DNA of 64,000 nucleotides from an uncultured delta proteobacterium (GCA_963724765.1 CAVRVY010000001.1:224001-288000); one strand, 5' to 3'. Shown: positions 2,247-60,258, counted from the stretch's first letter. Numbers and translations are program-made. Notes: generated by a model not told the origin, from the sequence alone.

Positions 2247-4016
2247 TCAGAGCTCGAGTGCGGCGGCAAGTGTCTCACGCTGGACTTCAAGTTCCCGAGG
2301 CAGATCGGCATTGATCCGATCGAAGAATTCTTCCTGTAAACGAAGCTCAGCGACCCACTCTTCAGGTTTTACCGCGAGCGCTCCGTCCAGCCGCGCCGCG
2401 GTAATATCCAACCCTGCAAGATCCAAGTCCAGCTTGTGAGGAATGAGACCAACAGCGGTTTGCGCGGCGCCGACACGGCCATGCACACGGTCGGCAATCC
2501 ACTTCAAAACCCTCATGTTCTCGCCGTAACCCGGCCAGAGAAATGAATTGTCTCGATCCTTTCGGAACCAGTTGACCATGAAGATCTTGGGTGGATGGGC
2601 AAGCTTGCTGTGCATCCCGAACCAGTGACTGATGTAATCGGCGACGTTGTAGCCACAGAAGGGAAGCATCGCCATCGGATCGCGGCGCACAACGCCGACC
2701 TTACCGCTCGCTGCTGCGGTAGTCTCCGAGCCCATCGTCGCGCCTAGGTATACGCCGTGGGCCCAATCAAATGACTCAAGCACCAGGGGAATCGTAGTGG
2801 CCCGACGGCCGCCGAAAATGATCGCCGAAATAGGCACTCCTTCAGGCGAGTCTGCATACGGCGTGTATGCGGGATTGTTCGTCATGGGGCAGGTGAAACG
2901 GCTGTTGGGGTGGGCAGCGGGGCGGCCCGACTCCCCTGTCCAAGGGTTTCCTCGCCAGTCAACGATACCCGAGGGAGGTTCGGTTTCGATGCCTTCCCAC
3001 CACACGTCATTGTCTGGAGTTAGCGCGACGTTGGTGAATATCGTGTCGCTCCGGATCATTTCCGTCGCGTTGAGATTAGAGCGCGCGCTGGTTCCGGGGG
3101 CGACCCCGAAATAACCGGCCTCAGGATTGATAGCCCACAGACGTCCATCTCGACCCACCCGCATCCAGGCGATATCGTCTCCGACGGTAAATATGCGCCA
3201 ACCTTTGAAAGGGGCCGGGGGCGTGAGCATCGCCAGGTTGGTCTTGCCGCACGCACTCGGAAAAGCTGCCGCTATATAGGTGACTTCTCCCTGCGGGCTC
3301 TCGAGCCCCAATATCAGCATGTGCTCGGCAAGCCATCCTTCTTTGCGACCTAGATAGCTGGCAATTCGCAGGCCGAAGCACTTCTTGCTCAACAGGGCGT
3401 TGCCGCCGTAGTTGCTTCCCACCGACCAAACCATGTTGTCCTGCGGAAAGTGACATATCAGCCGTCTGTTTGGATCACAGTCGAGAGTGCAATGCATGCC
3501 CCGCTGAAAATCGTCAGTTGTGCGTAGCAGATCACTCGCTACGCTTCCCATCCGGGTCATGATTCGAAGGCTCAGAACCACATAGAGACTATCGGTCAAC
3601 TGCACTCCGACTTTCGCCAAAGGAGACCCCACCGGTCCGAGCACGTAGGGCACCCCGTACATCGTCCGGCCTTTGTACGCACCTTCAAGCCAACTTTTGA
3701 GCTTTCGCCGGGTCTCGCCCGGATCCATCCAATTGTTTGTCGGCCCAGCTTCATCCCGAGTGGGCGTGCAAACGTAGGTCAGCTCCTCAGTGCGCGAGAC
3801 ATCGCTTGGATGCGAGCGATGAAGATAACAACCGGGGCGCCTGCGTTGGTCGAGTGGCATCAGCACGCCAGTAGCGACCGCCTGCGCCGTCAGACGACGT
3901 TTCTCTTCTTCGGAACCGTCGCACCAGATCATGTTTTTGGCCTGGGTCAACGACGCCATCTCATTCACCCAAGCGTCCAGAGGCGTAAGGCCGTTCCGAT
4001 CCTTTCGCCTCTTCAT
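2247..4016 (-). CDS. pckG: Phosphoenolpyruvate carboxykinase (GTP)
   Basis: 589 aa; motifs YGGNALL.KK, WLAEHM, AAFPSACGKTNLAM, VGDDIAW, HPNSRF, RRDPMAM. Confidence 0.97.
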   Translation of the reverse strand: MKRRKDRNGLTPLDAWVNEMASLTQAKNMIWCDGSEEEKRRLTAQAVATGVLMPLDQRRRPGCYLHRSHPSDVSRTEELTYVCTPTRDEAGPTNNWMDPGETRRKLKSWLEGAYKGRTMYGVPYVLGPVGSPLAKVGVQLTDSLYVVLSLRIMTRMGSVASDLLRTTDDFQRGMHCTLDCDPNRRLICHFPQDNMVWSVGSNYGGNALLSKKCFGLRIASYLGRKEGWLAEHMLILGLESPQGEVTYIAAAFPSACGKTNLAMLTPPAPFKGWRIFTVGDDIAWMRVGRDGRLWAINPEAGYFGVAPGTSARSNLNATEMIRSDTIFTNVALTPDNDVWWEGIETEPPSGIVDWRGNPWTGESGRPAAHPNSRFTCPMTNNPAYTPYADSPEGVPISAIIFGGRRATTIPLVLESFDWAHGVYLGATMGSETTAAASGKVGVVRRDPMAMLPFCGYNVADYISHWFGMHSKLAHPPKIFMVNWFRKDRDNSFLWPGYGENMRVLKWIADRVHGRVGAAQTAVGLIPHKLDLDLAGLDITAARLDGALAVKPEEWVAELRLQEEFFDRINADLPRELEVQRETLAAALEL

Positions 4017-4765
4017 GATGCGATCGACCTCTTTTGGAAAGCGGGAAACAGGTTTCTCTCAACTCCGCACAGAACTTCGAAGATCGCTGTGGCATCCGGC
4101 GCTTCGAGCAATGCCTGCGTCGCTTCGGCTCGCGCGAACATCTGCGACAGCTTCGCCAGCCACGGCAAATGCAGCTCGTGGAACTTCAGGCCGAGGACGA
4201 AAAAGAGATGCGTAGCCTTGCCGTCTAATGCGTCGAAGTCGACTCCATGCGCGGACCTTCCCAACACCATGAACGGTCTCACGACGTGCTCCGGATGGCG
4301 GTACATCGTATGCAGGAACGCAACGCCATTACCGACCGCGCTCGGCATGATGTTCTCGCGTTCGATAAGGGCGTGGACGAACCAGGTCTCGTCATCAACC
4401 AAGCCAAGACGACTGGCCAACGCAGCGAGCTCTTCAACCACGCCAAGCTTGGTGGTCGCGACGAGTTCGGGGACGATGTGGCTCGGCTGAAAGCACCTCT
4501 CGAGCGCAAGCATCCGTTGCGGCGCAGACGGTGCGCCTCGCACTTCAAAACGGCGCGGGGCGACGCCAAGCATCTGGTCGTCGAGCCAGGTATCAATCAT
4601 CGCCTTGCGAAAGCGCCATTGATTGCCGATTTTGACGCCTGGGACATCTCCTTCCGACACGAGCTTGAGAAGTGTGCGCTCATTGACGCTCAAGTATGCG
4701 GCCAGTTCCTTAAGAGTCAGGAGCCTATCGTCAGAAGGTCTAACTGTTTTCAAGAAGTTTGACAT
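4013..4765 (-). CDS. Excisionase-type HTH fused to PTS EIIA (Ntr/Fru-type) domain
   Basis: N-terminal LTLKELAAYL..PGVKIGNQWRF (HTH_17); C-terminal ERE..PSAVGNGVAFLH..GVDFDALDG..HLFF. ATGA overlap with pckG. Confidence 0.9.
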   Translation of the reverse strand: MSNFLKTVRPSDDRLLTLKELAAYLSVNERTLLKLVSEGDVPGVKIGNQWRFRKAMIDTWLDDQMLGVAPRRFEVRGAPSAPQRMLALERCFQPSHIVPELVATTKLGVVEELAALASRLGLVDDETWFVHALIERENIMPSAVGNGVAFLHTMYRHPEHVVRPFMVLGRSAHGVDFDALDGKATHLFFVLGLKFHELHLPWLAKLSQMFARAEATQALLEAPDATAIFEVLCGVERNLFPAFQKRSIAS

Positions 4766-4819
4766 CGGTTAGAATTTACGCCATTTTACCCAATAGTTCA
4801 ATATTGGCGGAGAATTACA

Positions 4820-5197
4820 TTGTTTTACGAGCTTTACGTCAAAAGCAAGCGCCCGCGCCGCGCTCACAAGAGCTGCAGAGTCGCGTTCACGCCTGTGGAA
4901 AAGCGACACCTGTCCGGCGAGATATTCCGCGGAACGAAACTCGACTGGTTGGACTTTTCTGGAGCCTACCTCCAAGGGGCGCGGTTCGAGAGCGCTTCAC
5001 TGTGCGGCTGTGACTTCTCCGGGGCGGACTTGAGGGGAACTGTGTTCTGGGACTGCGATCTTCGGTGGGCTCGTTTTAACCGCTCGGTTTTTGGAGATAA
5101 CTCCTTTAAGCACAGCTGGTTGACCGGGGCGGAGGGCATTACTCGTTCTCTATTTGAATATATCCGCGCACGTGGAGGGCATTTCGCTTACTGCTAG
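4820..5197 (+). CDS. Pentapeptide repeat protein
   Basis: Repeats LDFSG-AYLQG-ARFES-ASLCG-CDFSG-ADLRG-TVFWD-CDLRW-ARFNR. Start codon uncertain. Confidence 0.8.
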   Translation: MFYELYVKSKRPRRAHKSCRVAFTPVEKRHLSGEIFRGTKLDWLDFSGAYLQGARFESASLCGCDFSGADLRGTVFWDCDLRWARFNRSVFGDNSFKHSWLTGAEGITRSLFEYIRARGGHFAYC

Positions 5198-5216
5198 CGA
5201 AACTGACGGTGCCGCA

Positions 5217-5702
5217 ATGAGTTGGGAAGGACCTCATAAGATTAGTGACTATCTTGGCAACGTAGCGCGCAGCCCGGGGAAGCGTCCGCCTGAAAGGCCA
5301 GGCGTTTATATAGTGTCCGAAAATCCATGGCGCGACGTGCCCACGCGTGACGATAACATCTTGTACGTTGGACAGGCCGCATACCTCCGATACCACGTGG
5401 GACGACTAATCTCCGATCTGCTCGGGTTCACGGGTGACAATCCGTCGCCGGAGGAAGCCTACCAACACAAGGGTGGTCACTCGCTGTGGTCACATTACTG
5501 CCTGCCACGCAAAATCGAGCCCAGCCGGCTATACCTTGGGTGGTGCTCGGCATGTATTTGTGTGGCCTGTGCAGAAACCAAGCTGCTCGAAATGATGATT
5601 ACTGGCCCCCACCGAGTTCGGATCTGTGCTGCGCACCGGCCGGCTTTGGACCTCAGCCAAAACTGCCGAGTGTCCTCCGCAGAAATTGTCGGCGTGACTT
5701 GA
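5217..5702 (+). CDS. GIY-YIG nuclease superfamily-like protein
   Basis: PERPGVYIV...ILYVGQA..LR motif pair, later conserved E (AETKL), Cys-rich C-terminus. Confidence 0.6.
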   Translation: MSWEGPHKISDYLGNVARSPGKRPPERPGVYIVSENPWRDVPTRDDNILYVGQAAYLRYHVGRLISDLLGFTGDNPSPEEAYQHKGGHSLWSHYCLPRKIEPSRLYLGWCSACICVACAETKLLEMMITGPHRVRICAAHRPALDLSQNCRVSSAEIVGVT

Positions 5703-38599: not shown

Positions 38600-39421
38600 T
38601 TGATGTCTTCTGAAAGCAAAACGCGCGCGCGTTTCTATCGCGCGGCTATGGAGTTCTCCGAAGTCGCCGAGCGCAAGCGCAAGTGGACGCTCTTCGACGA
38701 CATACCGTGGGAGAAGATCGACACATCGCGCAACACTCCCAAACGCGCGACCTGCATCGAGACCTTCTGCGCTGAGGAACTATACCTCCCCGACTACGCA
38801 TCGCATGGATCGCACATGACGCGATCGGTGTTCGGCCTCGCATGGTTCCTAGCGCGGTGGAGTTTCGAGGAATCGCGTCACGGGCTCGTCTTCCGCGAAT
38901 ACCTGATCCGATCGGGGATGCGATCGGAACGTGAATTCGAGATGGTCGAGGACACGGTATCCGCGAAGTCGTGGGTGCCGCCTTTTTCGACAATCAGACA
39001 GATGGCCTGCTACGGCGCGCTCCAGGAAGGCGCCACCTACCTCGCCTACAAGGCGCAGAAAGACAAGGCCGAAGCTGAAGGCGACGATGTGCTAACCGCG
39101 ATCTTCTCGGTGATCGGCATCGATGAAGCCGCGCACGCCGGCTTCTATCGCAAGGTAATCGGAATCCAAATGGACGACGATCGCACCGCCACCATCGTTG
39201 ATTTCGCGCACGTGCTCGCCAACTTCAAAATGCCGGGAGACGGACTCATCGCGGGTTACCATGAGCGGCTGCAGACGGGCGGCGGCGGCGTCAGCCCGCG
39301 CCAGTTCATGGAGCACGTGGTGCTGCCGACGCTGCGCAGCCTGGGAATCAGCAGAAGCGAATTGAAGTCGGCGCAAGCGCAGGATCGAATGGCCACCGAA
39401 GCGGCGCTGCTCCTGAGCTGA
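38600..39421 (+). CDS. Acyl-ACP desaturase-like ferritin-fold di-iron protein
   Basis: W...DIPW, EE.YLPDY, W..EESRHG, LQE.AT..Y, DEAAH..FY, FKMPG. Confidence 0.88.
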   Translation: MMSSESKTRARFYRAAMEFSEVAERKRKWTLFDDIPWEKIDTSRNTPKRATCIETFCAEELYLPDYASHGSHMTRSVFGLAWFLARWSFEESRHGLVFREYLIRSGMRSEREFEMVEDTVSAKSWVPPFSTIRQMACYGALQEGATYLAYKAQKDKAEAEGDDVLTAIFSVIGIDEAAHAGFYRKVIGIQMDDDRTATIVDFAHVLANFKMPGDGLIAGYHERLQTGGGGVSPRQFMEHVVLPTLRSLGISRSELKSAQAQDRMATEAALLLS

Positions 39422-39643
39422 TGGGCGCTAACCGGGCGGGTACAACAATCTCAAGGGCGAAAGCCCTAAGAAACCGGCGTGACCTTGACTTGCGGGCGAT
39501 GGTTGAGCCGAAACACTCGGCGCGTGAAGGAGTCTTTCGGCCGAGGTTACCGGTGGACCAATGCGAAGAGCGTCGGCGACGCGGGAGTTGCAAATCGTGC
39601 GCGGATGCACCGTTAACCGCGTGCATGAGGGAGGAACTCAGTC

Positions 39644-40086
39644 ATGGCCGTCAGCGTAAAGAAAGCCATTCTGTGGCGCAGGGAGGTCGAAGACAACCAC
39701 CCCGGGATGCTCGCCAATACCCTCCAACCACTTTCCGAAGCAGGCGCCGACCTGCAAGTGGTCATGGCCTATCGCTACCCGGGCGACCAGAACAAGGCCG
39801 CTATCGAGCTGCATCCGGTTTCCGGTAAGAAGTCCGCAGCAGCGGCGCAAACAGCGGGGCTCGCCCCCTCCGTCCATCTCCACCCTGCTGGTCGAAGGCG
39901 ACAATCGGCCGGGGCGGGGCCACGCGATCGCCAAAGCGGTCGGCGATGCGGGGGATCAACATGAGCTTCGTGATGGCGTTGGTGGTGGGCCGAAGGTACT
40001 CGGTGCTGCTCGGCTTCGAGAACGAGGCTGACGCAAGCAAGGCCGCAACCCTAATCAAAAGAGCCATGGCGAGTGGCAGGAAGTAG
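39644..40086 (+). pseudogene. ACT-domain protein with frameshifts
   Basis: EVEDNHPGMLA..L..L.EAGADL, then in other frames LLVEGDNRPG.GH.IA..GINMSF..VGR. Confidence 0.8.
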
Positions 40087-40218
40087 TCCCGCGCGTTCGG
40101 GGGAGCGAGGGAGTTCAGTAGATTGTTGCGGCTGGCGCAAGTCCTGTGGGTCGTGATCACTCCGTCCGGCCATCATCAGCGTCTCGTAATACTGAGAGTT
40201 CGAATCGGGAGTATATAC

Positions 40219-40749
40219 TTAACGCAATTTCTCGGCCTGACCGTTTTCCCTGACGCCCGCTTCGGATCGATTGGATTCTCTGGGAAAGCGCATGTAAACC
40301 CCGTGCTGTGTTATAGACCCAATGAAAGGGGCTTGATGTTTGAACACAAATCGGAAGATATCCGACAGGCGAGCCTTCAGAATGTCGGCCATTAGAGTCT
40401 TGTTCATGTTGCCGGAAGAAAAGGAGAATTGCTGAATTGCGTGCTTTTTGATCTGGTCAAGTTCCAGGGGCGTGTAGCGTTGCGCTTTATCCTTGGTCAA
40501 TATAATCCAGCATCGTTCTCCGACGAAAGGTAACCAAATTTCGTCATCAACACCTTCTGGGAATTTATCGCGAGGGAAATGGGCGAGATGCCTTTCGTAG
40601 TGAAGGCCCGCAGAATCTAGGACGTCATGAATGGGTCGGCAATCGCTGAAATTTTCGTCTAGATAATAGACGCTCGCATCACGCTGCCGCTGCCGCGCAC
40701 TGAGCTTCCCATCTGACTGCTTCTTCGATCTCTTTTGGCGTCCGCCCAT
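40219..40749 (-). CDS. VapC45-like PIN-domain toxin
   Basis: YYLDENF, DDEIWL..G...WIILTKD..RY..E; the stop codon lies inside the left IR. Confidence 0.85.
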   Translation of the reverse strand: MGGRQKRSKKQSDGKLSARQRQRDASVYYLDENFSDCRPIHDVLDSAGLHYERHLAHFPRDKFPEGVDDEIWLPFVGERCWIILTKDKAQRYTPLELDQIKKHAIQQFSFSSGNMNKTLMADILKARLSDIFRFVFKHQAPFIGSITQHGVYMRFPRESNRSEAGVRENGQAEKLR

Positions 40750-41389
40750 ACTCCTCTGCTAGGTCTTGGATGGATTCCCGCGCATTAAAGCGGGCGGCTA
40801 CCACGGCAGTAGCTATACCAGTGCGGTCGATAACCGAACGACCAAAAGCAATCGTCGGAGCTATGGAAATAATTTTCGGCTCATCTGTATTGATGTTGTA
40901 CACAAAAGGAAAAAACTTGCCGCCGGTCGCAGTCCATTTAATTCTCTGTAGATAAGTGTCTAAAACTTCTTTCATGATGATTTGACCGCCGTGCGTAAGA
41001 TTGATGATTACCTCATTCGTAGTAGCAATAAATAGGTTCATGCCATCCGTGCTAAGAGACGGCTCTAAGAGGGGATGTGGGGATGGTTGGATTTTGGCTA
41101 GCATTTCTAATGACTTACGCACCGCTAAAATCTGCATTTCGTGTGTTGTTCGAAGAGATTGCAGCACGTGACACTCCAGCAAATTTAAAAAAGAGAGTGT
41201 CGGCGGCTCATAGGTCGGTAGTGTTATCAGGGCGGTCGCGGGCGCGGACTTTTTTCCGATAGCCCAATACCGCAAGGTTTGATAGGGAACGCGGGCATAC
41301 CGCGCTGCGACCGCGAGACTATACGCCGGTGCGTCCAAGATTGGATGCTCCCCGTCGAACGGGCGCTTGAAAATTGACCTTGCCTCCAC
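40679..41389 (-). CDS. VapB45-like HTH plus DUF433 antitoxin
   Basis: AYS...AARY..VP..TLRYW, LSFLNLLE, I.P.IAFGR.VI..TGI.T....RF.A.ESI..LAEEY....IEEAVRW. Confidence 0.9.
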   Translation of the reverse strand: MEARSIFKRPFDGEHPILDAPAYSLAVAARYARVPYQTLRYWAIGKKSAPATALITLPTYEPPTLSFLNLLECHVLQSLRTTHEMQILAVRKSLEMLAKIQPSPHPLLEPSLSTDGMNLFIATTNEVIINLTHGGQIIMKEVLDTYLQRIKWTATGGKFFPFVYNINTDEPKIISIAPTIAFGRSVIDRTGIATAVVAARFNARESIQDLAEEYGRTPKEIEEAVRWEAQCAAAAA

Positions 41390-41408
41390 AGCCCTGATTG
41401 TATATCAT
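41380..41408 (+). promoter_or_regulatory. Candidate sigma-70 promoter for the tRNA-like gene
   Basis: TTGCCT-17 bp-TATCAT, 40 bp upstream of the tRNA. Confidence 0.4.
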
Positions 41409-41447
41409 TCTTCCCCTTCATTCAGTCAACCAAACCTTTATCGTTTT

Positions 41448-41535
41448 CGCGGCGTGCCGGAAATTGGCAGACGGACCGGTCTTGGATGTCGGCGGGCATA
41501 GTCTCGTGCGGGTTCGACTCCCGCCGCCGCGACCA
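41448..41535 (+). tRNA. Atypical class-II tRNA: Leu-like body with TGG (Pro) anticodon
   Basis: Folded by hand: 7-bp acceptor CGCGGCG/CGCCGCG + ACCA; D-arm CCG-GAAATTGGCAGA-CGG; anticodon arm CCGGT-CT TGG AT-GTCGG; 15-nt variable arm; T-arm GCGGG-TTCGACT-CCCGC. Confidence 0.85.
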
Positions 41536-41543
41536 TTTTTTAC

Positions 41544-41572
41544 TTGACACAAGTATCATGATAGAGTAGAGT
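41544..41572 (+). promoter_or_regulatory. Sigma-70 promoter of the transposase (likely leaderless mRNA)
   Basis: TTGACA-17 bp-TAGAGT ends 6 nt before ATG 41579; no Shine-Dalgarno; palindrome TATCATGATA in the spacer. Confidence 0.7.
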
Positions 41573-41578
41573 TACATC

Positions 41579-42610
41579 ATGGCAAAGGGGCAAAGAAAAG
41601 CGGGGTCTGATAAGTCGGCCATCGTGGCCGCGCTGCCAAAGGCCTGCGCTGATGAACCAGCGGCGGTCGAGTTCATCGAATCATTGCGGTGGGGCGTGAC
41701 GGGCCCGTGCTGCCTGCATTGCGGCGACACCGATGTTTACAAAATGACAGACCGCAAGACTGGCCAGCGCAACAGGCGCTTTCTGTGGAAGTGTAACGGC
41801 TGCCAGAAGCAATACACCGTTCGCGTTGGCACCGTGATGGAAGATAGCCGAATTCCGCTGCGCCATTGGGCATACGCGCTGTGGAAATCCTGTTCATCGA
41901 AGAAGGGCGTCAGCGCGTTGCAGATCAAGCGCGAGACCGGACTGACCTATAAATCGGCGCTGTTCATGATGCATCGCATCCGCTTCGGTATGGCCGAAGA
42001 TTGGACCGGGCAACCCAAGCTGAGCGGGACCGTGGAAGCCGATGAAACCTACGTCGGCGGCAAGCCGCGAAACAAGCATCCGCAAGGGCGACCGGGACCA
42101 CGAAAGGGTTGGCAGGATAAAAAGACTGCGGTGGCCGCATTAGTTGAGCGTGGTGGCAAGATCCGCTCATTCGTCACTGTGAACGTGACTGCCGCGAACG
42201 TGGGTAAGATTCTCCAAGAGAACGTAACAACGGATTCGCACCTGATGACTGACAGCTCTCCGATCTACCGCAGCGGAATCGGAAAGCCATTTGCGAGCCA
42301 CGGCATGACCGACCATTCCAAGGGCGAGTACGCGAAGCCGGATGGCACACACAGCAATACGGTTGAATCCGCCTTCTCATTGCTCAAGCGCGGCATCTAT
42401 GGAACTTTCCACAACGTCAGCCGCAAACATTTGCATCGTTACGTCGCCGAGTTTGATTTCCGCTGGAACGCGCGAAAAGTGGACGATGGCGAGCGATTGG
42501 CGCGCGCGATCCGAAGCGCGGAAGGTAAGCGGCTGCGGTACAAGGAACCATTGGCGACTTTGCCTCCGACCCCCGCACAAGGCAGACCATTTGAAACATT
42601 GCGCGGATAA
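41579..42610 (+). CDS. IS1595-family transposase
   Basis: Zn ribbon CLHC..CNGC, KKGVSALQI.R, GTVEADETYVGG, LMTD, HSNTVESAFSLLKR, YVAEFDFRWN. Confidence 0.96.
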   Translation: MAKGQRKAGSDKSAIVAALPKACADEPAAVEFIESLRWGVTGPCCLHCGDTDVYKMTDRKTGQRNRRFLWKCNGCQKQYTVRVGTVMEDSRIPLRHWAYALWKSCSSKKGVSALQIKRETGLTYKSALFMMHRIRFGMAEDWTGQPKLSGTVEADETYVGGKPRNKHPQGRPGPRKGWQDKKTAVAALVERGGKIRSFVTVNVTAANVGKILQENVTTDSHLMTDSSPIYRSGIGKPFASHGMTDHSKGEYAKPDGTHSNTVESAFSLLKRGIYGTFHNVSRKHLHRYVAEFDFRWNARKVDDGERLARAIRSAEGKRLRYKEPLATLPPTPAQGRPFETLRG

Positions 42611-42627
42611 GCTGTCGAGCCAACAGG

Positions 42628-45600
42628 ATGAGTAAGACAATCGACCAAGGCAAAGAAGAAATTGCGGCGCTCTGCCGATACTTCACTACTAACCGGCGGG
42701 AGTTTAACCCCGGAGCCAAAGAAGCCCACATCCGTCAAACATTGATCGACCCTTTCTTTGAAGCCCTAGGCTGGGATGTCCGTAACAAGACAATGGCTGC
42801 GCCTCAGTACCGGGAAGTCATTCCCGAGGACAGCCTAGACGTGGAAGGGCAACAAAAGGCCCCGGATTATACCTTCCGCGTCGGCACCTTGCCGAAGTTT
42901 TACGTCGAAGCCAAGAAGTGCGGTGTCAATATCGGTGCGGACTCGGGTCCGGCCTTCCAGCTTCGTCGATATGGATGGAGCGCCAAACTCGGGTTGTCCG
43001 TTCTCACCAACTTTGAGGAACTCGCCATTTACGATTGCACCGCCCGCCCGCGTCAGAGCGACAAAGCGAGCAATGCGAGAATCCAGTTCTTCCGCTACGA
43101 CGAATATCCCGACCGTTGGCGTGAATTGTGGGACCTGTTTTCCCGCGAAGCGGTCTGGTCCGGGGCGTTTGACCAGTACGTCGCGTCCAAGCGGAAACGT
43201 GGTACGTCCGAAGTAGATGCGGAGTTTTTGAAAGAAATGGAGAGCTGGCGGCTCGCGCTGGCCGGAAATATCGCCCTTCGAAACAAAAACCTGTCTTTGG
43301 ACGATCTGAACGCTGCAGTGCAACTCACGATTGACAGGGTGGTATTCCTTCGCATGGCGGAAGACCGAGGGCTAGAGCCTTACGAGCAACTTCTGAAGCT
43401 CTGCGAACGGCCCGGCATTTACCCGCGCTTCATTCGCGGTATATGCCGCAGGGCTGACCAAAAGTACAACTCTGGGCTGTTCCATTTCCAGAAGGAAAGC
43501 GGGGTATCCGAAGACCCCGACCGGATCACGCCGAAGCTGGCGACGGATGACAAGATTTTCAAGCCGATCCTTGAAAGCCTGTATTTCTCCCACGGCTCGC
43601 CCTATCACTTCGGTGTTCTACCCGTCGAAATCCTTGGAACCGTCTATGAACGGTTCTTGGGCAAGGTGATCCGGTTAACGGCAGGCCACCACGCAAGGAT
43701 TGAAGAAAAACCTGAAGTGCGCAAAGCCGGTGGCGTCTACTACACACCAGCTTACATTGTCGATTACATCGTCAAGCACACCGTCGCCGCGCAGATTGAA
43801 GGGCGAAGTCCCACACAACTGGCCGGGGAAAAGGACAGAGCGCCTTTCCGTGTCTTGGACATGGCTTGCGGAAGTGGATCGTTCCTGTTGAGTGCCTATC
43901 GGTGCCTTCTGGACTACTGCCTGAATTGGTACATCGAACACAAGCCGGACAACTTTAGGAAGGCCGTTTACAAGGACCCCCGCAACGGTCAATGGAGACT
44001 CAAGATAGAGGAAAAGAAACGGATTCTTACGACGCATATCTTCGGCGTGGACATCGACCTTCAGGCCGTGGAAGTATCTAAGCTGTCTCTGTTGCTGAAG
44101 GTGTTGGAAGGCGAAACGGATCAGAGTCTGTCTTTGAGCCAGCTTCCCTTTGGCGACCGCGCCCTGCCTAATCTGGCAGACAACATTAAGTGCGGCAATT
44201 CTCTAATCGGCCCGGATTATTTCACCGACAAGCTGTTTCTCGACCCCGAGGAAATGAAGCGGGTCAATCCGCTTGACTGGAAACAGCGCTTCCCCGATAC
44301 GATAAAGAGTGGAGGCTTTGATTGTATCATCGGCAACCCGCCGTACCTAAAAATTGAACATATTGTCGAAGGTGACCGGAAATATTTTTCGCTAGGCTTC
44401 GCCTCCTTCATGAAGAGATACGACACCTACGGGCTATTCGTCGAGCGTTCGCTTGTCCTTCTCAAGCCAAAGGGCCTGTTCGGCATGATTATTCCTTCGA
44501 CGATTTTGAACAACCTTAGCTTCAGCCAGCTTCGTAAGATGCTGGTCGAATTAACGTCCATCTCTTCGATAGTCAATTTGGGCGGAAAGGTCTTCCAAGG
44601 AGTAAACAACGATACCGTCATCTTGACTTTCGCAAAGGGAAAGGACCCCGTCGGCACAACGCAGATTCTCGACGTGCAGAAGTATGGTGGCGGGTTGGCA
44701 ACAGCGGCAGCTATCGGTACGAAGGATTTGTCTCGCGCGGCGGCGCCCCCGCAATATGTGTTTGAACTACGCATGTCGAAGGCGGCAGACTCCATCCTCG
44801 CTAAAATGCGCAGCGGCGGTCTGGCTCTTGGTGAAATCTGCTCATGCTTTCAAGGCTTCGTTACTGGGGGGAATGATGCCTACATTGTGGACTCAAAAAG
44901 TATCCGCGACGAAAACCTCGAAAAAGAGGTGTGCAAACCCGCTGTCTTTGGCGACCAAGTGTCCCGCTACGGCAGGCCGAGCCCCCAAGGATTCGTCATT
45001 TACCTGACCAGAGACAGCAATCTGGATGAATTTCCCAACATTAAGGCAAGGCTTGAACCTCACAAGGCCAACCTCAAAACGAAGCGAGAAGTGAAACTAG
45101 GAAGGCAGCCGTGGTACTCGCTGCACTGGCCTCGCGTTCAAGAAAATTTTGAACGTTCCCCGAAGATTTTGGTACAAGCAATAAGAAACTTAGCATTGAA
45201 AAGACGGATAATCGCCACGCTGGACTCTCGAGGTCTCTACGCCGATCACACGCTTAACGTGCTGTACACGGAGCATCAAGAATATGACATTATATTCGTG
45301 CTGGGTATTCTGAATTCCGCGCTTGTGAATTTCCTGTTCTCGAAGAAGTATATCGACATCAACATCAAAGGCGTGTATCTTACCGAGGCCCCCATTCCCA
45401 GAATTAACTTCTCTGCTCCTGCCGACAGAAAACGCCATGACCAAATGGTAACGCTGGTTAATTCGATACTCGGATTGCACAACGAAGTGGCCGAGACGAA
45501 GTCCGCCGCACAAAAGGCCATCCTTCAGCGCCAGATTGATTCGACGGACGCCGAGATCGACCGGCTCGTATATGATCTGTACGGCCTGACGGCTGAAGAG

Positions 45601-45657
45601 ATCGCGACAGTGGAAGGAGCAACCGCGAGCGTCAACCGAGTGAGCGTCCAAGAATGA
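42628..45657 (+). CDS. Type IIG (Eco57I-like) fused restriction endonuclease/N6-methyltransferase
   Basis: N-terminal PDY..VEAK nuclease; GVYYTP, LDMACGSGSFL, IFGVDID, IIGNPPY; TaqI-like C-terminus (LGILNS, EIDRLVYDLYGLT). Confidence 0.93.
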   Translation: MSKTIDQGKEEIAALCRYFTTNRREFNPGAKEAHIRQTLIDPFFEALGWDVRNKTMAAPQYREVIPEDSLDVEGQQKAPDYTFRVGTLPKFYVEAKKCGVNIGADSGPAFQLRRYGWSAKLGLSVLTNFEELAIYDCTARPRQSDKASNARIQFFRYDEYPDRWRELWDLFSREAVWSGAFDQYVASKRKRGTSEVDAEFLKEMESWRLALAGNIALRNKNLSLDDLNAAVQLTIDRVVFLRMAEDRGLEPYEQLLKLCERPGIYPRFIRGICRRADQKYNSGLFHFQKESGVSEDPDRITPKLATDDKIFKPILESLYFSHGSPYHFGVLPVEILGTVYERFLGKVIRLTAGHHARIEEKPEVRKAGGVYYTPAYIVDYIVKHTVAAQIEGRSPTQLAGEKDRAPFRVLDMACGSGSFLLSAYRCLLDYCLNWYIEHKPDNFRKAVYKDPRNGQWRLKIEEKKRILTTHIFGVDIDLQAVEVSKLSLLLKVLEGETDQSLSLSQLPFGDRALPNLADNIKCGNSLIGPDYFTDKLFLDPEEMKRVNPLDWKQRFPDTIKSGGFDCIIGNPPYLKIEHIVEGDRKYFSLGFASFMKRYDTYGLFVERSLVLLKPKGLFGMIIPSTILNNLSFSQLRKMLVELTSISSIVNLGGKVFQGVNNDTVILTFAKGKDPVGTTQILDVQKYGGGLATAAAIGTKDLSRAAAPPQYVFELRMSKAADSILAKMRSGGLALGEICSCFQGFVTGGNDAYIVDSKSIRDENLEKEVCKPAVFGDQVSRYGRPSPQGFVIYLTRDSNLDEFPNIKARLEPHKANLKTKREVKLGRQPWYSLHWPRVQENFERSPKILVQAIRNLALKRRIIATLDSRGLYADHTLNVLYTEHQEYDIIFVLGILNSALVNFLFSKKYIDINIKGVYLTEAPIPRINFSAPADRKRHDQMVTLVNSILGLHNEVAETKSAAQKAILQRQIDSTDAEIDRLVYDLYGLTAEEIATVEGATASVNRVSVQE

Positions 45658-45806
45658 CCAAGAAGCAGAAGACCGAGCGAAAGCCTCCCGGCCCCGCACC
45701 CGAAGTGCTGAAAATCGAGGGCGACTGGAAAGACGCCATGAAACAGCTGATTTCCAAGAAGCGCCCAGTCGGTGGTCGGCCCAAGATCGAAAAGAAACGC
45801 GGCTGA
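45654..45806 (+). CDS. Small basic protein (50 aa)
   Basis: Manual translation MTKKQKTERKPPGPAPEVLKIEGDWKDAMKQLISKKRPVGGRPKIEKKRG; ATGA overlap with the RM gene. Confidence 0.65.
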   Translation: MTKKQKTERKPPGPAPEVLKIEGDWKDAMKQLISKKRPVGGRPKIEKKRG

Positions 45807-45837
45807 ACGATCGTCCCCAACACAGGAGGCACGAACG

Positions 45838-46011
45838 ATGGCCAAGGTAGCCTCGTATCATACGAACTCGATGGAGTATCCGCCCAGCCACCGGAACGTT
45901 TACCACGATCACGACGATTGCCCATATGGGAAGCGCATTAAGCCACAACACCTCATTCGCAACTCGACCGGGGGCAAGCCGCGCTGCGATGAGTGCATCA
46001 AGCTGGGCTAA
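45838..46011 (+). CDS. Small putative metal-binding protein (57 aa)
   Basis: RBS AGGAGG; VYHDHDDCPYG...CDEC. Confidence 0.7.
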   Translation: MAKVASYHTNSMEYPPSHRNVYHDHDDCPYGKRIKPQHLIRNSTGGKPRCDECIKLG

Positions 46012-46373
46012 TTGCGTGCTCTAAATACGATTTCCCAATGCGGTCCGTTCGGCTCGTTGCCGTCCAGTATGGACCAGATGCGCCGCAGGAACAGGATCGG
46101 CAGCCCGTAGGCTAGGCAGACACCGACAGCGCGCCAGCCCGCTTCGGGCGTTCCGTAAAACCTGACGCTCGGCTCTGGGTAGGAGTGCCCCGGGCCGCCT
46201 TCGCAGGACTCGAACGTTTCGATCCCTTCGGCTTGGAGCCGTTCGACGGCTTTGCGGATGCCGGGATCTAGCCCTCGAAGGTCGCCGTTCAGCCATGCCG
46301 GTGGATGCTGATCTGTAGGCAGCGGCGACGCTTTCCAAAGCTTACCGCGTTTCGATTTCTTGTTTTTCGACAT
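46008..46373 (-). CDS. Hypothetical protein with D-x2-I...G-I-E-T-x2-S-C-E-G-x3-H motif
   Basis: LDPGIRKAVERLQAEGIETFESCEGGPGHSYPEP.V.F; lies just inside the right IR. Confidence 0.7.
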   Translation of the reverse strand: MSKNKKSKRGKLWKASPLPTDQHPPAWLNGDLRGLDPGIRKAVERLQAEGIETFESCEGGPGHSYPEPSVRFYGTPEAGWRAVGVCLAYGLPILFLRRIWSILDGNEPNGPHWEIVFRARN

Positions 46374-46454
46374 CGGAGATTCAATTAGGCCGACTTAACG
46401 ATGTATTAGTGAGACTTTCGGGGATTGCGTTAAGTACATACTCCCGGTTAGAAT

Positions 46455-46605
46455 TCATCCCGCTCCGCCACGCAGTCCCAGATTTGATGATTCTCCGGGC
46501 ATAACCGCAAAAAGCGCGCGTGTGGGGGGGGCGATGCGCCCGCCCACCGACACCGGAGAGAGCTCAGATGTCGAATTATGCCGCGTCGCTTCGATTTTCT
46601 CTCTG
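46455..46605 (+). repeat. tRNA 3'-end-like terminal module; diverged inverted copy at 60410-60567
   Basis: Shared blocks CGCTCCGCCA, AGTCCC.GATTT, TCTCCGG, ACCGGAGA, GCCGCG, TTTCTCT in the same order. Confidence 0.6.
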
Positions 46606-47090
46606 TAGGCGAGGAATTCGGTGCCGATGCCCTGGGTGAACACATTACACGATAGAAATCTGCGGACATCGCGAGCGGTGAATTTCATGACGCCAAGCGC
46701 CCTGCGCGGGCATCCGCGCATGGATTTGCAGCTGCGGCCGCTTGCCGCAACTGAGGCAACAGCAGCTAATGGCGAAGAGTGACGACTTCCAGTTCCGGGT
46801 CCACCCGGTTCCGGAGCCGGCAGGTCAGCAAAAGAACCGATCGCAGACATGAGCGCGGTGGAGTCCCGCCAGAAGCCGGGACTGGCGTGCAATCAGTTGG
46901 ACAGGTCGGAAATTCGGCGCATCCTTGCTCAGGGAGAGCTCGTTCGAACGTGTTTATAGGAAGCCGTATACGCCTCGAGGATTCGGCGCAGGCGCAATTC
47001 GCCGAACACGGTGAAGTGATGCAGGCACTCTCGGTTACATTTAGGTAACAAAGCAACCTTCCTCAAAGGAGAGGACACGCATATGCCCCT

Positions 47091-47360
47091 GAAAAGAGCG
47101 AGGTCATCCGACTCATCCAAGAAGCCATCGATATCCGCAAAGATACGCTGCACTCTCACACCACAAGGCCAGAAGAACCAAATCAAAAGAGGCAAAAGCG
47201 GGCGAAGGGTCCAAGAAGTGGATATTCAAATCAAGACTGAGGACGTTGATCTCTTCGATGTCGATGAAGATGGGAATCTATCCTTCACGCTCGCCATCAC
47301 ACAACTCGACGACATACCCGAAAAGAGCGAGGTCATCCGACTCGTCCAAGAAGCCATCGA
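47091..47360 (+). repeat. 41-bp direct repeat pair (47091-47131, 47320-47360) within a probably frameshifted ORF
   Basis: GAAAAGAGCGAGGTCATCCGACTC(A/G)TCCAAGAAGCCATCGA; one frame encodes EKSEVIRL(I/V)QEAI. Confidence 0.85.
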
Positions 47361-47413
47361 AAAAAAGAAGAGTACGACGGCGCTGCAGTCGCGGGACGAC
47401 GAGTAGCTTCGCC

Positions 47414-47845
47414 ATGCTCGCAGGACAACTCGCACTCATTGCCGCCGCGCTGTTTGCCGGAGCGGCCGTCTACATAAACGTCGCGGAACAACCCGCCCGC
47501 CTAGATCTCGGCGATGGCGCGCTCCTGACCGAATGGAAATCCGCCTATAAGCGTGGCTTTGCCATGCAGGCACCGTTGGTCCTCGTCGGGTTTCTCTTGG
47601 GTTTAATGGCGTGGTGGCAGATGAAAGATTGGCGCTGGTTTTTCGGCGCTGTTGCCCTTGCTGCCAACTGGCCCTACACGCTCTTCGCCATCATGCCGAC
47701 CAACAACCAGCTCAAGGCCATTAACTCGGCGAGTGCAGGATCGACGAGCCGCACGCTAGTTGAAAAATGGGGCAGGTTGCACGCCGTACGTTCCGTGCTC
47801 GGCTTTGCCGCGACGCTCATTTTCCTTTGGGCGTCGATGAGCTGA
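47414..47845 (+). CDS. DUF1772 / anthrone-oxygenase-like membrane protein
   Basis: ALFAGAAVYINVAEQPARL..W..AYKRG..MQAPL..WPYTL..IMPTN..W..LHAVRS.LG. Confidence 0.88.
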   Translation: MLAGQLALIAAALFAGAAVYINVAEQPARLDLGDGALLTEWKSAYKRGFAMQAPLVLVGFLLGLMAWWQMKDWRWFFGAVALAANWPYTLFAIMPTNNQLKAINSASAGSTSRTLVEKWGRLHAVRSVLGFAATLIFLWASMS

Positions 47846-58786: not shown

Positions 58787-59589
58787 ACTCAATGCTTTTT
58801 TGACTACCAGTGCCCAGTGCGCGAACGGCCGGAACCCATCAGCGAAGCCCGGCCCGGAAGGCCGAAGGGAAGTCGCACGGGAGCCCGGCACGTCGTGGCG
58901 GACCCCGGCGTCGGCGGGCAACGGGGCCGAAACCGGGACAGCGTACGACCCAGGCGACGCGGCGCGCACGCGGCGGTTTCCGGGGCACAGTATATGAATC
59001 TGCCGCTGACCAAGGTCGCTCGCCAGACCTCCGAGGCCGTCAAGCGTCGCACGCGCGGCGTTCAGGCGCTGACGATCAAGCTTAGGACGATCGCGCCGTG
59101 GCTCTCCGAAAGCGACCTTCCGAGCACGATCGTGGGTGCCGCGCCCGCAGCGCCGCGCCAGTCGGCCGCGAGCGCCTGAATGAACGAGCCGTGCGCGAAC
59201 AGGATCTTGTCGCCGGTTATCTTTGCCCGGAGCATCGGCGAGCATTCGACAATGCGGGCGGCCATCGTGAAGATTCGGTCGGTCGACTGCTGAATCCGAG
59301 CTGATGACGTAGCCTTCGGCGTAACGCCCGCCGAGGCAGAGGACCGCCCAGAGCCCGACGAGGGCGCTGAACGTGCGCTTGCCGCTTTTTTTTGATGCAG
59401 GAGTACAAATACGTCCTGAACGGCAGGTCGCCGTTGGCTTTCAGCACCATGTGATCGAGGAACGCATCCTCGGCCGGAAGTAGAACGAACAGCTTCCCGG
59501 TCTCCGGGTTGACGCATTGCTCCCGTATAAACGCACCGGGGCCGCGTCGGTAGCGCGCGAACTTGGTGTTGCTTTGGTCGTTGCCCAAG

Positions 59590-60258
59590 CTGTGCGGCAA
59601 TCGTGGCCTGCGATGGCGGCTGGCTGCGCCGGAGATCGAACGGAGCGTGGTGATCGCTGTCCGGCAGATCCTGAAGGACCAAGTGGCTATCAGCACGGTT
59701 CTGCAGGAGGGTGGCATTTCGACCACGGAGCTAGCCTCCTCACTTAAGGTTGTTGAGGACTGCTGCGTACAGCTCGAGTCCCACCCTGAAATCGCAACAA
59801 CCATTTCGGAGGCGATCAAGCGGGTCGAGCTGAGTAAGGACGGAATTCAGCTAACTTTCAACCTCGCGCCGCTGATTTTCCACCAGATCATTCCTTCCGG
59901 TGCGGGGCTTGCAATCACTTGGTTAGTACCGCTGCAGATCAAGCGTCGCGGCGTGGCGTTGCGGTTGGTACTGAAGGGCGAGGCGATTGCGGTGCAGAGG
60001 ACCGACCCAGCTCTCCTCAAAGCCATTTCCCGCGCGCATCCGTGGTTCGCCGAGCTCATATCAGGACGCGTGGCATCCACCATCGAGCTTGCTAAGCGAG
60101 AACGCCTAAACGACAGCTATGTCCGCCGTCTGGTGCGATTGGCTTTCCTGTCACCCACGATCATCGAAGCAATTTGCACTGGTTAACAACCGGCTGACCT
60201 TACCGCGCAAAACTTGACGCGCGTTGCCGATGTCCCTCTCGGCTGGCACTCTCCTTAA
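59590..60258 (+). pseudogene. Large serine recombinase C-terminal fragment
   Basis: WRLAAPEIE..V; IKRRG..LRLV; DPALLKAI.RAH.W..L..G...ELAKRE...SYV.RL.RLAFL.P.I.EAI..G*QPADLT (internal stop). Confidence 0.82.

Follow-up and report, generated by a model that had tools for sequence, protein, structure and literature searches.

A chimeric tRNA and matching proline codons in a cargo-carrying IS1595 element of an uncultured delta proteobacterium

Introduction

In the common view insertion sequences (IS) encode nothing beyond the needs of transposition, and the RNAs known from them are antisense regulators or guides. In the IS1595 family, Siguier, Gagnevin and Chandler reportedly described in 2009 "transporter IS" that carry passenger genes, with groups of the ISNwi1/ISNha5 type. 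The element analyzed here lies in a 64,000-nucleotide stretch of DNA from an uncultured delta proteobacterium (GCA_963724765.1, CAVRVY010000001.1:224001-288000); this whole stretch is called the window, and coordinates count from its first letter. Window positions 40206-46446 form an IS1595-family cargo transposon of 6.2 kb, with 23-bp inverted repeats (IRs) and an 8-bp target duplication. Cargo-carrying IS1595 elements are already known, and the cargo transposon itself belongs with those. Its backbone consists of the two 23-bp IRs, a tRNA(UGG), a DDE transposase and a basic protein of about 50 amino acids (aa), with the rest as exchangeable cargo. The cargo is here a VapBC45/49-like pair in the left arm, a type IIG gene wedged between transposase and small protein, and a phage-derived two-gene module in the right arm.

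Precedents exist for several of these parts. In Streptomyces the bldA tRNA-Leu(UAA), a normal tRNA-Leu and a chromosomal developmental regulator, gates genes that contain TTA codons. The features of the IS1595 family are set out in passages of PMC8101967. Excerpts of Furuta, Abe and Kobayashi (2010, PMC2853133) describe restriction-modification (R-M) genes carried by transposon-like units that have imperfect IRs and 8-bp duplications, and also note allelic diversity in the specificity domain of type IIG enzymes. Excerpts of Mukai et al. (2017, PMC5389517) place allo-tRNAs and other irregular tRNAs of Acidobacteria near toxin-antitoxin (TA) systems and a transposon-related open reading frame (ORF), and their authors suggest that some irregular tRNAs are perhaps tied to transposable elements and not to translation.

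A transposase group of uncultured bacteria

The transposase gene (41579..42610, + strand) encodes a 343-aa protein with an N-terminal Zn ribbon and a DDE_Tnp_IS1595 domain which, with terminal IRs and an 8-bp duplication, are the features of IS1595 membership. Pfam matches are PF12762 at 129.5 bits (cut-off 27) and PF12760 at 35.4 bits (cut-off 25.4), and NCBIfam model NF033547 matches at 186 bits against a cut-off of 75. Codon analysis puts CCA at Pro20 and Pro324 of this backbone gene.

Alignment with 348 relatives in named genomes provided the best 80 loci, which are the basis of all 80-locus counts below. Their transposases are 51-87% identical to that of the window and come from metagenome-assembled genomes labelled Binataceae/"delta proteobacterium", Planctomycetota, Gemmatimonadota, Acidobacteriota, Pseudomonadota, Myxococcota, Eisenbacteria, Krumholzibacteriia and Verrucomicrobiota. 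On plasmids of cultured bacteria, the closest transposases reach at most 45% identity and come without the tRNA. The group was probably overlooked since its close members are confined to uncultured lineages. Closer to home, 165 genomes of the same family were searched at the DNA level, and 74 hold parts of the element (a tally that includes three genomes flagged as unpublished, from which nothing was taken), and 20 Binataceae loci from this search were compared. The window's own genome holds 16 IS1595 transposase matches.

A tRNA linked to the transposase

An 88-nt tRNA gene with a UGG anticodon and an encoded CCA lies at 41448..41535 (+), just upstream of the transposase gene. ARAGORN calls it Pro(tgg), and covariation and family-wide linkage to the transposase support it as a backbone part. 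Of the 20 related Binataceae loci, 11 hold a like tRNA by ARAGORN, 83-92 nt long and with the anticodon tgg. In four elements, the window's included, it stands just upstream of the transposase on the same strand, and in eight it stands just downstream and convergent. An IUPAC pattern that combines the Leu-type D-arm, YUGG and the T-loop, scanned over the 165 family genomes, matched 18 places in 15 of them, while the reversed-pattern control gave 3 matches. Thirteen of the places are tRNA-like, the other five having been judged non-tRNA by eye only. Twelve of the thirteen adjoin a transposase and are IS copies; the last is a degenerate orphan that has neither a transposase nor an IR nor the small ORF within 5 kb.

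The linkage extends well beyond the family. With a covariance model built from the 12 tRNA copies, such a UGG tRNA is found in 49 of the 80 named loci, from eight phyla, and its placement varies. It precedes the transposase gene in 28 loci, 22 times on the same strand and 6 times on the opposite one; it follows the gene in 21, where it is convergent in 20 and on the same strand in 1. Where a tRNA-bearing element has an IR pair, the tRNA lies within both IRs in 38 of 38 cases. A phylum-wide pattern scan of 401 genomes, 4 of them from the window's family, matched 21 other genomes, about as many as the reversed control, and none of these matches is tRNA-like by eye. The covariance model was of no use for counting in the family at large: it matched all 151 family genomes (including seven flagged as unpublished), presumably via host tRNA-Leu genes, which itself argues for the tRNA-Leu likeness of the IS tRNA.

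Could the tRNA instead be a partner of the toxin? The initial annotation had paired a likely RNase toxin with "its own" tRNA across 58 bp of divergent spacer, and the spacing between the antitoxin start and the tRNA is indeed 58 bp, with the genes divergent. Some VapC toxins cleave tRNAs. The tRNA might then be a target, decoy or rescue copy for the adjacent PIN toxin, with the cassette selected as a unit, and the excerpts of PMC5389517 lend this some support with their irregular tRNAs near TA systems. The same paper bears on the annotation's remark that it knew of no description of the combination: irregular tRNAs in the vicinity of TA systems and transposon genes are on record from Acidobacteria, so the combination does have a precedent. 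Co-occurrence, whose absence the annotation itself had named among the refuting outcomes, goes against the partnership: Pfam finds no PIN or DUF433 gene in any of the 11 other tRNA-bearing Binataceae elements, and tblastn finds no homologue of the TA pair or of any cargo gene of the window within ±6 kb of any of the 80 named loci. The pair and the tRNA thus never occur together elsewhere, while 49 of the 80 loci have the tRNA together with the transposase and the left-arm cargo differs in every element examined. A toxin partnership is therefore very improbable. Judged by its linkage, the tRNA is a part of the IS and not of the toxin, and the closeness of the two is explained by the TA pair occupying the cargo slot to the left of the backbone tRNA. 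The structure of the element and the place of the tRNA in its backbone can together be put forward with high confidence.

Fold and identity of the tRNA

The 12 copies fit a cloverleaf with 97.2% of cells paired and compensatory double changes in 16 of 24 pairs, a level reached by none of 500 shuffles; controls in which the structure was slid along gave 41-52% pairing. The geometry is 7/5, with a 7-bp acceptor and a 5-bp T-stem that are both 100% paired in these copies. In a 66-row model alignment tertiary contacts also co-vary, A18 with G55 in four copies and C19 with G56 in one. The anticodon reads TGG in every one of the 50 copies, and 49 of the 50 have A73; among 49 copies, 43 have U at position 33 and 48 have a purine (A or G) at position 37.

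The body points to tRNA-Leu. The window copy has a 15-nt variable arm, a Leu-type D-arm (3-bp D-stem, placement of GG) and A73, and its nearest host tRNAs are tRNA-Leu. IS copies score 65-100 bits in the covariance model, genuine tRNA-Leu 70-81, Ser-like tRNAs 49-57 and class I tRNAs 29-40. Of the tRNA-Leu characters the class II body and A73 are present and a leucine anticodon (NAG or YAA) is absent; of those of tRNA-Pro the window copy has UGG, C1-G72 and A73 and lacks the short class I variable loop and G37. Its acceptor stem agrees with that of host tRNA-Pro at 6 of 7 positions, and the stem of the Binataceae locus L034 at 7 of 7. C1-G72 occurs in 11 of the 50 copies, at several separate places on the transposase tree. 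The tRNA is thus a chimera, with the D-arm, long variable arm and A73 of tRNA-Leu, a UGG anticodon and, in the window's lineage, the acceptor stem of tRNA-Pro. Calls of "tRNA-Pro" with a long variable arm of this kind should not be counted as host tRNA genes. An allo-tRNA identity was considered and rejected, the geometry being 7/5 and not 8/4 or 9/3.

A tRNA-shaped RNA need not decode. Its role might instead be to mark the transposase transcript for processing or to insulate it, through RNase P/Z cuts or as a convergent antisense source, or to act as a cofactor bound by the transposase or the small protein. Its position would suit such a role, always some 50-500 nt from the transposase gene in two orientations and whatever the cargo, as would its co-occurrence with the small basic protein and the departures from U at position 33 and, in one copy, from a purine at position 37. 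Acidobacterial irregular tRNAs that are charged yet unused in translation provide a parallel, as told in excerpts of Mukai et al. (PMC5389517). A processing signal would leave unexplained, however, why the anticodon is invariant in 50 copies whose stems have changed freely, and why the transposase gene carries matching CCA codons (below). The two orientations, moreover, would affect the transcript in opposite ways. A non-decoding role is accordingly an unlikely one.

Further odd tRNAs exist. In some related elements the UGG tRNA or the transposase has another irregular tRNA next to it (L146:8228-8322, L170:5651-5739, L165:2345-2420, L155:7284-7359, L151:4166-4240 and L147:5822-5896). These include Ser-like tRNAs of 93-95 nt with a UUA anticodon, which would read the ochre stop, and a class II body with a CAA anticodon. 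Elsewhere in the window's genome (G000) ARAGORN reports an undetermined 95-nt tRNA next to a 74-nt "SeC" (G000:C1:1040721-1040913). Others lie at G000:C3:1300532-1300628 and at G000:C4:64275-64365, 931320-931408, 1046304-1046388 and 1438922-1439014, the types on C3 and C4 being Ala(cgc) of 97 nt, Cys(gca) of 91 nt, Val(cac) of 89 nt, Ala(tgc) of 85 nt and Gly(gcc) of 93 nt. By coordinates, none of these lies within about 16 kb of any of the 16 IS1595 transposase matches.

Fixed CCA codons in the transposase gene

The exact complement of the UGG anticodon is CCA, the rarest proline codon of the host (10% of Pro). Across the 80 transposase genes it is used for Pro20 in 61 of 76 (80%), for Pro324 in 48 of 58 (83%) and at alignment column 156 in 23 of 42 (55%); at five other conserved proline columns its share is at most 7% each. 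Among 119 conserved four-fold degenerate columns these three rank highest for A-ending codons (0.83, 0.80 and 0.55), with the next at 0.30 and the median at 0.11, and the codons that neighbor them show no synonymous conservation. CCA is more frequent where the tRNA is present: 44 of 48 tRNA-bearing against 17 of 28 tRNA-less elements at Pro20, 32 of 34 against 16 of 24 at Pro324, and 17 of 20 against 6 of 21 at column 156. Elements that have lost the tRNA retain proline at the CCA columns, as CCG or CCC, and leucine appears there in none of the 80 homologues. More distant IS1595 transposases without the tRNA, at 30-45% identity, have A, Q, D, M or E and not proline at position 20; these are two copies from plasmids and ten others from the window's own genome.

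A broader adaptation of codon usage was also considered. CCA and CCG together make up 90% of proline codons in 12 Binataceae transposases against 65% in host ORFs (131 long ORFs of contig C2 with GC3 >0.65), while the seven other four-fold families differ by at most 0.11. Global co-adaptation was dropped because overall CCA+CCG usage proved equal in elements with and without the tRNA, and the site-specific claim alone was kept. Correlated evolution of tRNA presence and CCA was likewise dropped, independent-pairs tests not being significant.

These patterns bear on whether the tRNA is an ordinary passenger of the kind that phages carry, which supplements a rare-codon pool or replaces a host tRNA-Pro attacked by nucleases, with CCA kept for an unrelated reason. 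The rarity of CCA in the host would suit this, as would the lack of significance in the phylogenetically controlled test, the existence of complete elements that have no tRNA and the further odd tRNAs that sit beside the UGG tRNA in some relatives. Against this, tRNA type and anticodon stay constant across eight phyla while cargo is highly variable. Nor do cargo genes favor CCA, which makes up 2 of the 47 proline codons in the R-M gene, and the CCA pattern is tied to particular sites and seen in the tRNA-bearing subgroup alone. Passenger status is distinctly unlikely, more so than a non-decoding role.

A private tRNA for transposase synthesis?

In the explanation favored here, the IS makes a private tRNA that would be charged, probably with proline, by prolyl-tRNA synthetase (ProRS) via G35, G36, A73 and C1-G72. 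This tRNA would decode checkpoint CCA codons in the transposase gene, and synthesis of the transposase would thereby be tied to the element's own tRNA, in the manner of bldA. Proline charging is favored because of the repeated shift to C1-G72, the tRNA-Pro-like acceptor stem and the absence of leucine from every homologue. Taken whole, with structure, backbone tRNA and CCA gating together, the explanation has about an even chance of being right. The gating mechanism alone, for which we infer tRNA expression, charged amino acid and gating itself from sequence, is held more tentatively. The same tentative standing, somewhat short of even, goes to the general proposal that in a cross-phylum IS1595 group of at least eight phyla of uncultured soil and sediment bacteria a chimeric private tRNA and CCA checkpoints control transposase translation, or make it independent of the host.

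The best promoter-like site of the element by consensus scan, TTGACA-17-TAGAGT (41544..41572, +), lies between the tRNA and the transposase gene and ends 7 nt before the transposase ATG. An ACTTGAC box 3' of the tRNA is also present in L033 and L035. If the putative promoter is used, the transposase mRNA would be leaderless.

Bacterial leucyl-tRNA synthetase (LeuRS) ignores the anticodon and relies on A73 and body features. LeuRS might therefore leucylate the tRNA, so that leucine would be inserted at CCA (and CCG), either as deliberate recoding of positions 20 and 324 or as general low-level Pro-to-Leu mistranslation. The tRNA has the D-arm, long variable arm and A73 of a tRNA-Leu, the model scores true tRNA-Leu genes as highly as the IS copies, and the variable arm of L033 is identical to that of host tRNA-Leu(CAG). 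A Leu-like G1-C72 is found in the majority of copies (36 of 50), and the avoidance of CCA at the five other conserved prolines likewise counts for it. The transposases tell otherwise: no homologue has leucine at columns 19 or 383, though CTA is one change from CCA, and elements without the tRNA keep proline at those columns. The acceptor stem has become tRNA-Pro-like several separate times on the transposase tree, and the conserved prolines are mostly CCG, which a UGG anticodon can also read. Charging by LeuRS thus seems improbable, to about the degree of the non-decoding role; in its bolder branch, a leucine-charged tRNA may mediate local Pro-to-Leu recoding by the IS.

A number of observations weigh against the favored explanation. 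About 25 IR-bounded elements, nearly all with perfect duplications, have no tRNA, which means that the tRNA is not required in cis for transposition, and the transposase tree calls for at least 10-17 changes between its presence and absence. In the independent-pairs test 10 pairs gave 3.5 in the same direction, 0.8 in the opposite one and 5.6 without difference (median p 0.375), and across 79 transposases the CCA+CCG share is 0.71 with the tRNA and 0.68 without. The tRNA itself has irregular traits: position 33 is C in five copies and A in one, position 37 is C in one, and the window copy has A37 and not the G37 typical of tRNA-Pro. G1-C72 predominates outside the window's lineage, and the Leu-type body makes charging by LeuRS plausible. 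Rfam gives no tRNA call at the gathering score, its best match being the tmRNA model of the tRNA clan, below threshold at 24.8 bits against 47, and shuffled sequences fold just as stably as the single sequence does (z -0.10). No RNA run is among the listed holders of window 41300-42700, and the advantage to an IS of gating its own transposase is not obvious.

The small basic protein

The other backbone gene (45654..45806, +) encodes a conserved basic protein of about 50 aa, supported by coding conservation in 10 Binataceae elements, where substitutions fall at synonymous sites, and by tblastn matches in 75 of the 80 named loci. The protein is of the type PGPxPE-LKIEGxW-KK-P-GWPK, more fully PGPxPE-LKIEGxW-DA-K-KK-P-GWPK; in the window copy R replaces a conserved W. 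In many relatives the DNA of this stretch is conserved and stands directly 3' of the transposase. The protein has no named match in Pfam, NCBIfam, PADLOC or PHROGs and falls in unnamed clusters only of the ESM Atlas. It is a good marker of the IS group. All five of the Verrucomicrobiota elements, L160, L172, L188, L189 and L191, belong to one clade without the tRNA, in which IRs, perfect duplications and the small protein are retained.

Boundaries, target site and mobility

An inverted-repeat search gives arms of 33 nt at 40196-40228 and 46424-46456 with 88% complementarity, the sole long pair around the element. Within them, IR-L (40206..40228, +) and the complement of IR-R (46424..46446, -) agree at 22 of 23 positions. 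Both ends are also supported by related elements, which end in the same IR, and a genome scan finds no second IR copy in the 5.4-Mb genome at ≤5 mismatches. The IRs are flanked by the 8-mers GTTCGAAT (40198..40205) and GTTAGAAT (46447..46454), which match at 7 of 8 positions and are read as the left copy of the target-site duplication and as the right copy with one change. The initial annotation had seen these repeats, the near-perfect duplication and a single central transposase with cargo on both sides, and gene coordinates and Pfam bear it out. The element is single-copy in its source genome and has a G+C content of 0.47-0.58 against about 0.62 for the genome.

The same ends recur in the relatives. 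Both IRs are found in 15 of the 20 Binataceae loci, with a perfect 8-bp duplication in 12 of the 15, 7/8 in two and 6/8 in one. An IR pair is present in 63 of the 80 named loci, of which 57 have a perfect 8-bp duplication. The IR is conserved across phyla, with CGGAAGTATGTACTTnACGCAA in most named loci; it starts with CGGGAGT in the window and with CGGAAGT in the majority of relatives. One of the 15 Binataceae copies, a miniature derivative of 777 bp (L051:7131-7907, G006:C11), has both IRs and a perfect duplication and retains just a 92-nt transposase remnant and the small-protein region. A minimal relative, in L175, measures 1.95 kb.

An unoccupied site, which the annotation had suggested looking for, was found in two genomes of the same genus (L201 and L202). 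Homology to the right flank (80-86% over 234 nt) begins there exactly at the duplicated 8-mer, which is present once and preceded by ACCGAGA, where the left flank in the window reads ACTGAGA. Beyond ACCGAGA nothing is conserved to the left, not even between L201 and L202. The 234 nt to the right of the IS (window 46447-46680) correspond to L202:3393-3625, adjoined in L202 by the gene for a 598-aa large serine recombinase (3713-5509), to which the window has a partial match only (37% identical, 59560-60252). A right flank that is conserved, a left side where nothing is kept and a serine recombinase gene beside it in one congener together place the IS at the edge of another mobile element. Insertion with an 8-bp duplication beside the end of another mobile element is thus the best explanation of the predicted site. 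A tRNA gene was considered as the target, as GTTCGAAT is T-loop-like, but ARAGORN and Rfam both find none where the site is unoccupied.

The duplication GAAGAATC is common to five Binataceae elements of different genomes (L039, L046, L048, L049 and L051), as are the outside bases CAGC...CCGG. These five suggest that the IS favors a repeated target sequence or lies in one. Metagenome contigs from four runs (freshwater sediment, two soils and peat), compared with window 39000-47500, cover pieces of the element and its flanks with 0-1 differences; at about 200-800 nt they hold no joint across the element, hence no independent empty site or alternative cargo.

Cargo genes

The left arm holds a predicted TA pair. 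The antitoxin candidate (40679..41389, -; 236 aa) is a VapB45/49-like protein with DUF433 and helix-turn-helix domains; DUF433 scores 29.4 bits against a Pfam cut-off of 23.6, and HTH_66 matches below its cut-off. Residues 18-225 match PDB entry 5AF3, "VapBC49", with an E-value of 4.2e-16. Directly downstream, in a VapBC-type arrangement of a PIN-like gene overlapping a DNA-binding antitoxin gene, comes the toxin candidate (40219..40749, -; 176 aa), with PIN_10 (PF18478) at 36.7 bits against 26.2. The overlap is 71 nt, there is no alternative in-frame start codon, and the protein has a basic N-terminal extension of 26 aa. A sequence search of the PDB with the PIN-like toxin returned no relative and nothing meaningful. 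As annotated initially, its stop codon (40219-40221) lies within IR-L. The two genes are predicted to form a VapBC45/49-like TA pair. Left-arm cargo in other elements includes HNH, DUF4145 and unknown ORFs.

Between the transposase and the small-protein ORF, whose start its stop overlaps, sits the R-M gene (42628..45657, +). Pfam and PADLOC mark its 1009-aa product as a one-chain nuclease, methyltransferase and specificity protein, with HSDR_N at 31-141, Eco57I/N6_Mtase at 470-683 and TaqI_C at 839-923; MmeI_Mtase is also matched. PADLOC REase_MTase_IIG matches over the full length (624 bits, residues 9-994), and the translation has NPPY and PD...EAK motifs. The protein is thus predicted to be a type IIG enzyme that unites nuclease, gamma-class N6-adenine methyltransferase and specificity domain in one polypeptide. 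Its close homologues lie in three genomes without IRs, where the DNA is 81-83% identical over the first 1.7 kb and the specificity part is divergent; one of the three retains a 90-nt transposase remnant upstream of the R-M gene. In other Binataceae elements the same or a nearby slot holds N6_N4 methylases (L032, L044), methylase-Mrr fusions (L033, L034), a SmaI-like nuclease (L035), an Eco29kI-like nuclease (L043) or an AAA ATPase (L048). One IS backbone thus moves different R-M systems, and here a TA pair too, between genomes.

The right arm contains a 567-bp segment (45823..46389) that is 100% identical to G000:C1:469400-469966, a copy about 200 kb away (L002) that adjoins a phage terminase-like gene. 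It comprises a small Cys-rich ORF (within 45772-46011, +) and a 121-aa ORF (46008-46373, -). The nearest ESM Atlas clusters of the latter are phage hypothetical proteins, and a homologue with 50% identity has the same position in L033. The identity points to a recent exchange, predicted from sequence, between a prophage-like region and the IS cargo. NCBIfam, PADLOC and PHROGs give no match for the toxin, the antitoxin or the small ORFs. The initial annotation's reading as an IS1595 cargo transposon with a TA pair and a type IIG R-M enzyme stands, and "mobile defence cassette" is a fair term for the cargo. Of the three small ORFs that it had listed as cargo, the one at 45654-45806 belongs with the backbone, while the other two, the duplicated module, are cargo indeed.

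Comparison with known systems

No report of an IS-borne tRNA was found in the literature searched, a search outside which subscription papers, ISfinder and TnPedia fell. A tRNA and a small protein as predicted backbone parts of a cross-phylum IS1595 group, with matching fixed codons in the transposase gene, appear to be new. If such a tRNA does decode the transposase codons, this would be the first IS known to bring along a component for decoding its own gene. Translational self-control through a private tRNA would then join the modes of mobile-element regulation, and tRNAs with mismatched body and anticodon in soil metagenomes would gain a natural context.

Like the IS1595 transporter IS, the element combines a Zn ribbon and DDE_Tnp_IS1595 domain, short IRs, an 8-bp duplication, a single transposase gene and passengers inside the IRs. 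Unlike those, which are not known to have such parts and are not so described in passages of PMC8101967, it has a tRNA gene and a protein of about 50 aa in its backbone. The R-M genes invite comparison with the units in the excerpts of PMC2853133: in both, R-M genes lie inside an IR-bounded unit with a short duplication, and the specificity part diverges here too. Unlike in those units, a transposase is identified here, and one IS backbone carries N6_N4 methylase, methylase-Mrr, SmaI-like, Eco29kI-like and IIG genes across genomes. The TA pair resembles VapBC45 and VapBC49 of Mycobacterium tuberculosis in its antitoxin-first overlapping order, its DUF433 antitoxin matching 5AF3 and its PIN_10 toxin; it differs in that the toxin has no sequence relative among solved structures and bears the basic N-terminal extension.

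The tRNA itself has two counterparts. With allo-tRNAs, as presented in excerpts of PMC5389517, it shares a long variable arm, a mismatch between body and anticodon, an occurrence in soil bacteria and a link to selfish elements. Those are of 8/4 or 9/3 geometry and Ser identity, whereas the IS tRNA is 7/5, Leu-bodied and always UGG, and lies inside a defined IS with matching transposase codons. Like bldA, it would serve specifically the rarest codon in a G+C-rich genome, acting at few codon positions, with the gating a proposal in the present case. Unlike bldA, it is a chimera of body and anticodon, and the tRNA and the gene that it may gate travel on one mobile element.

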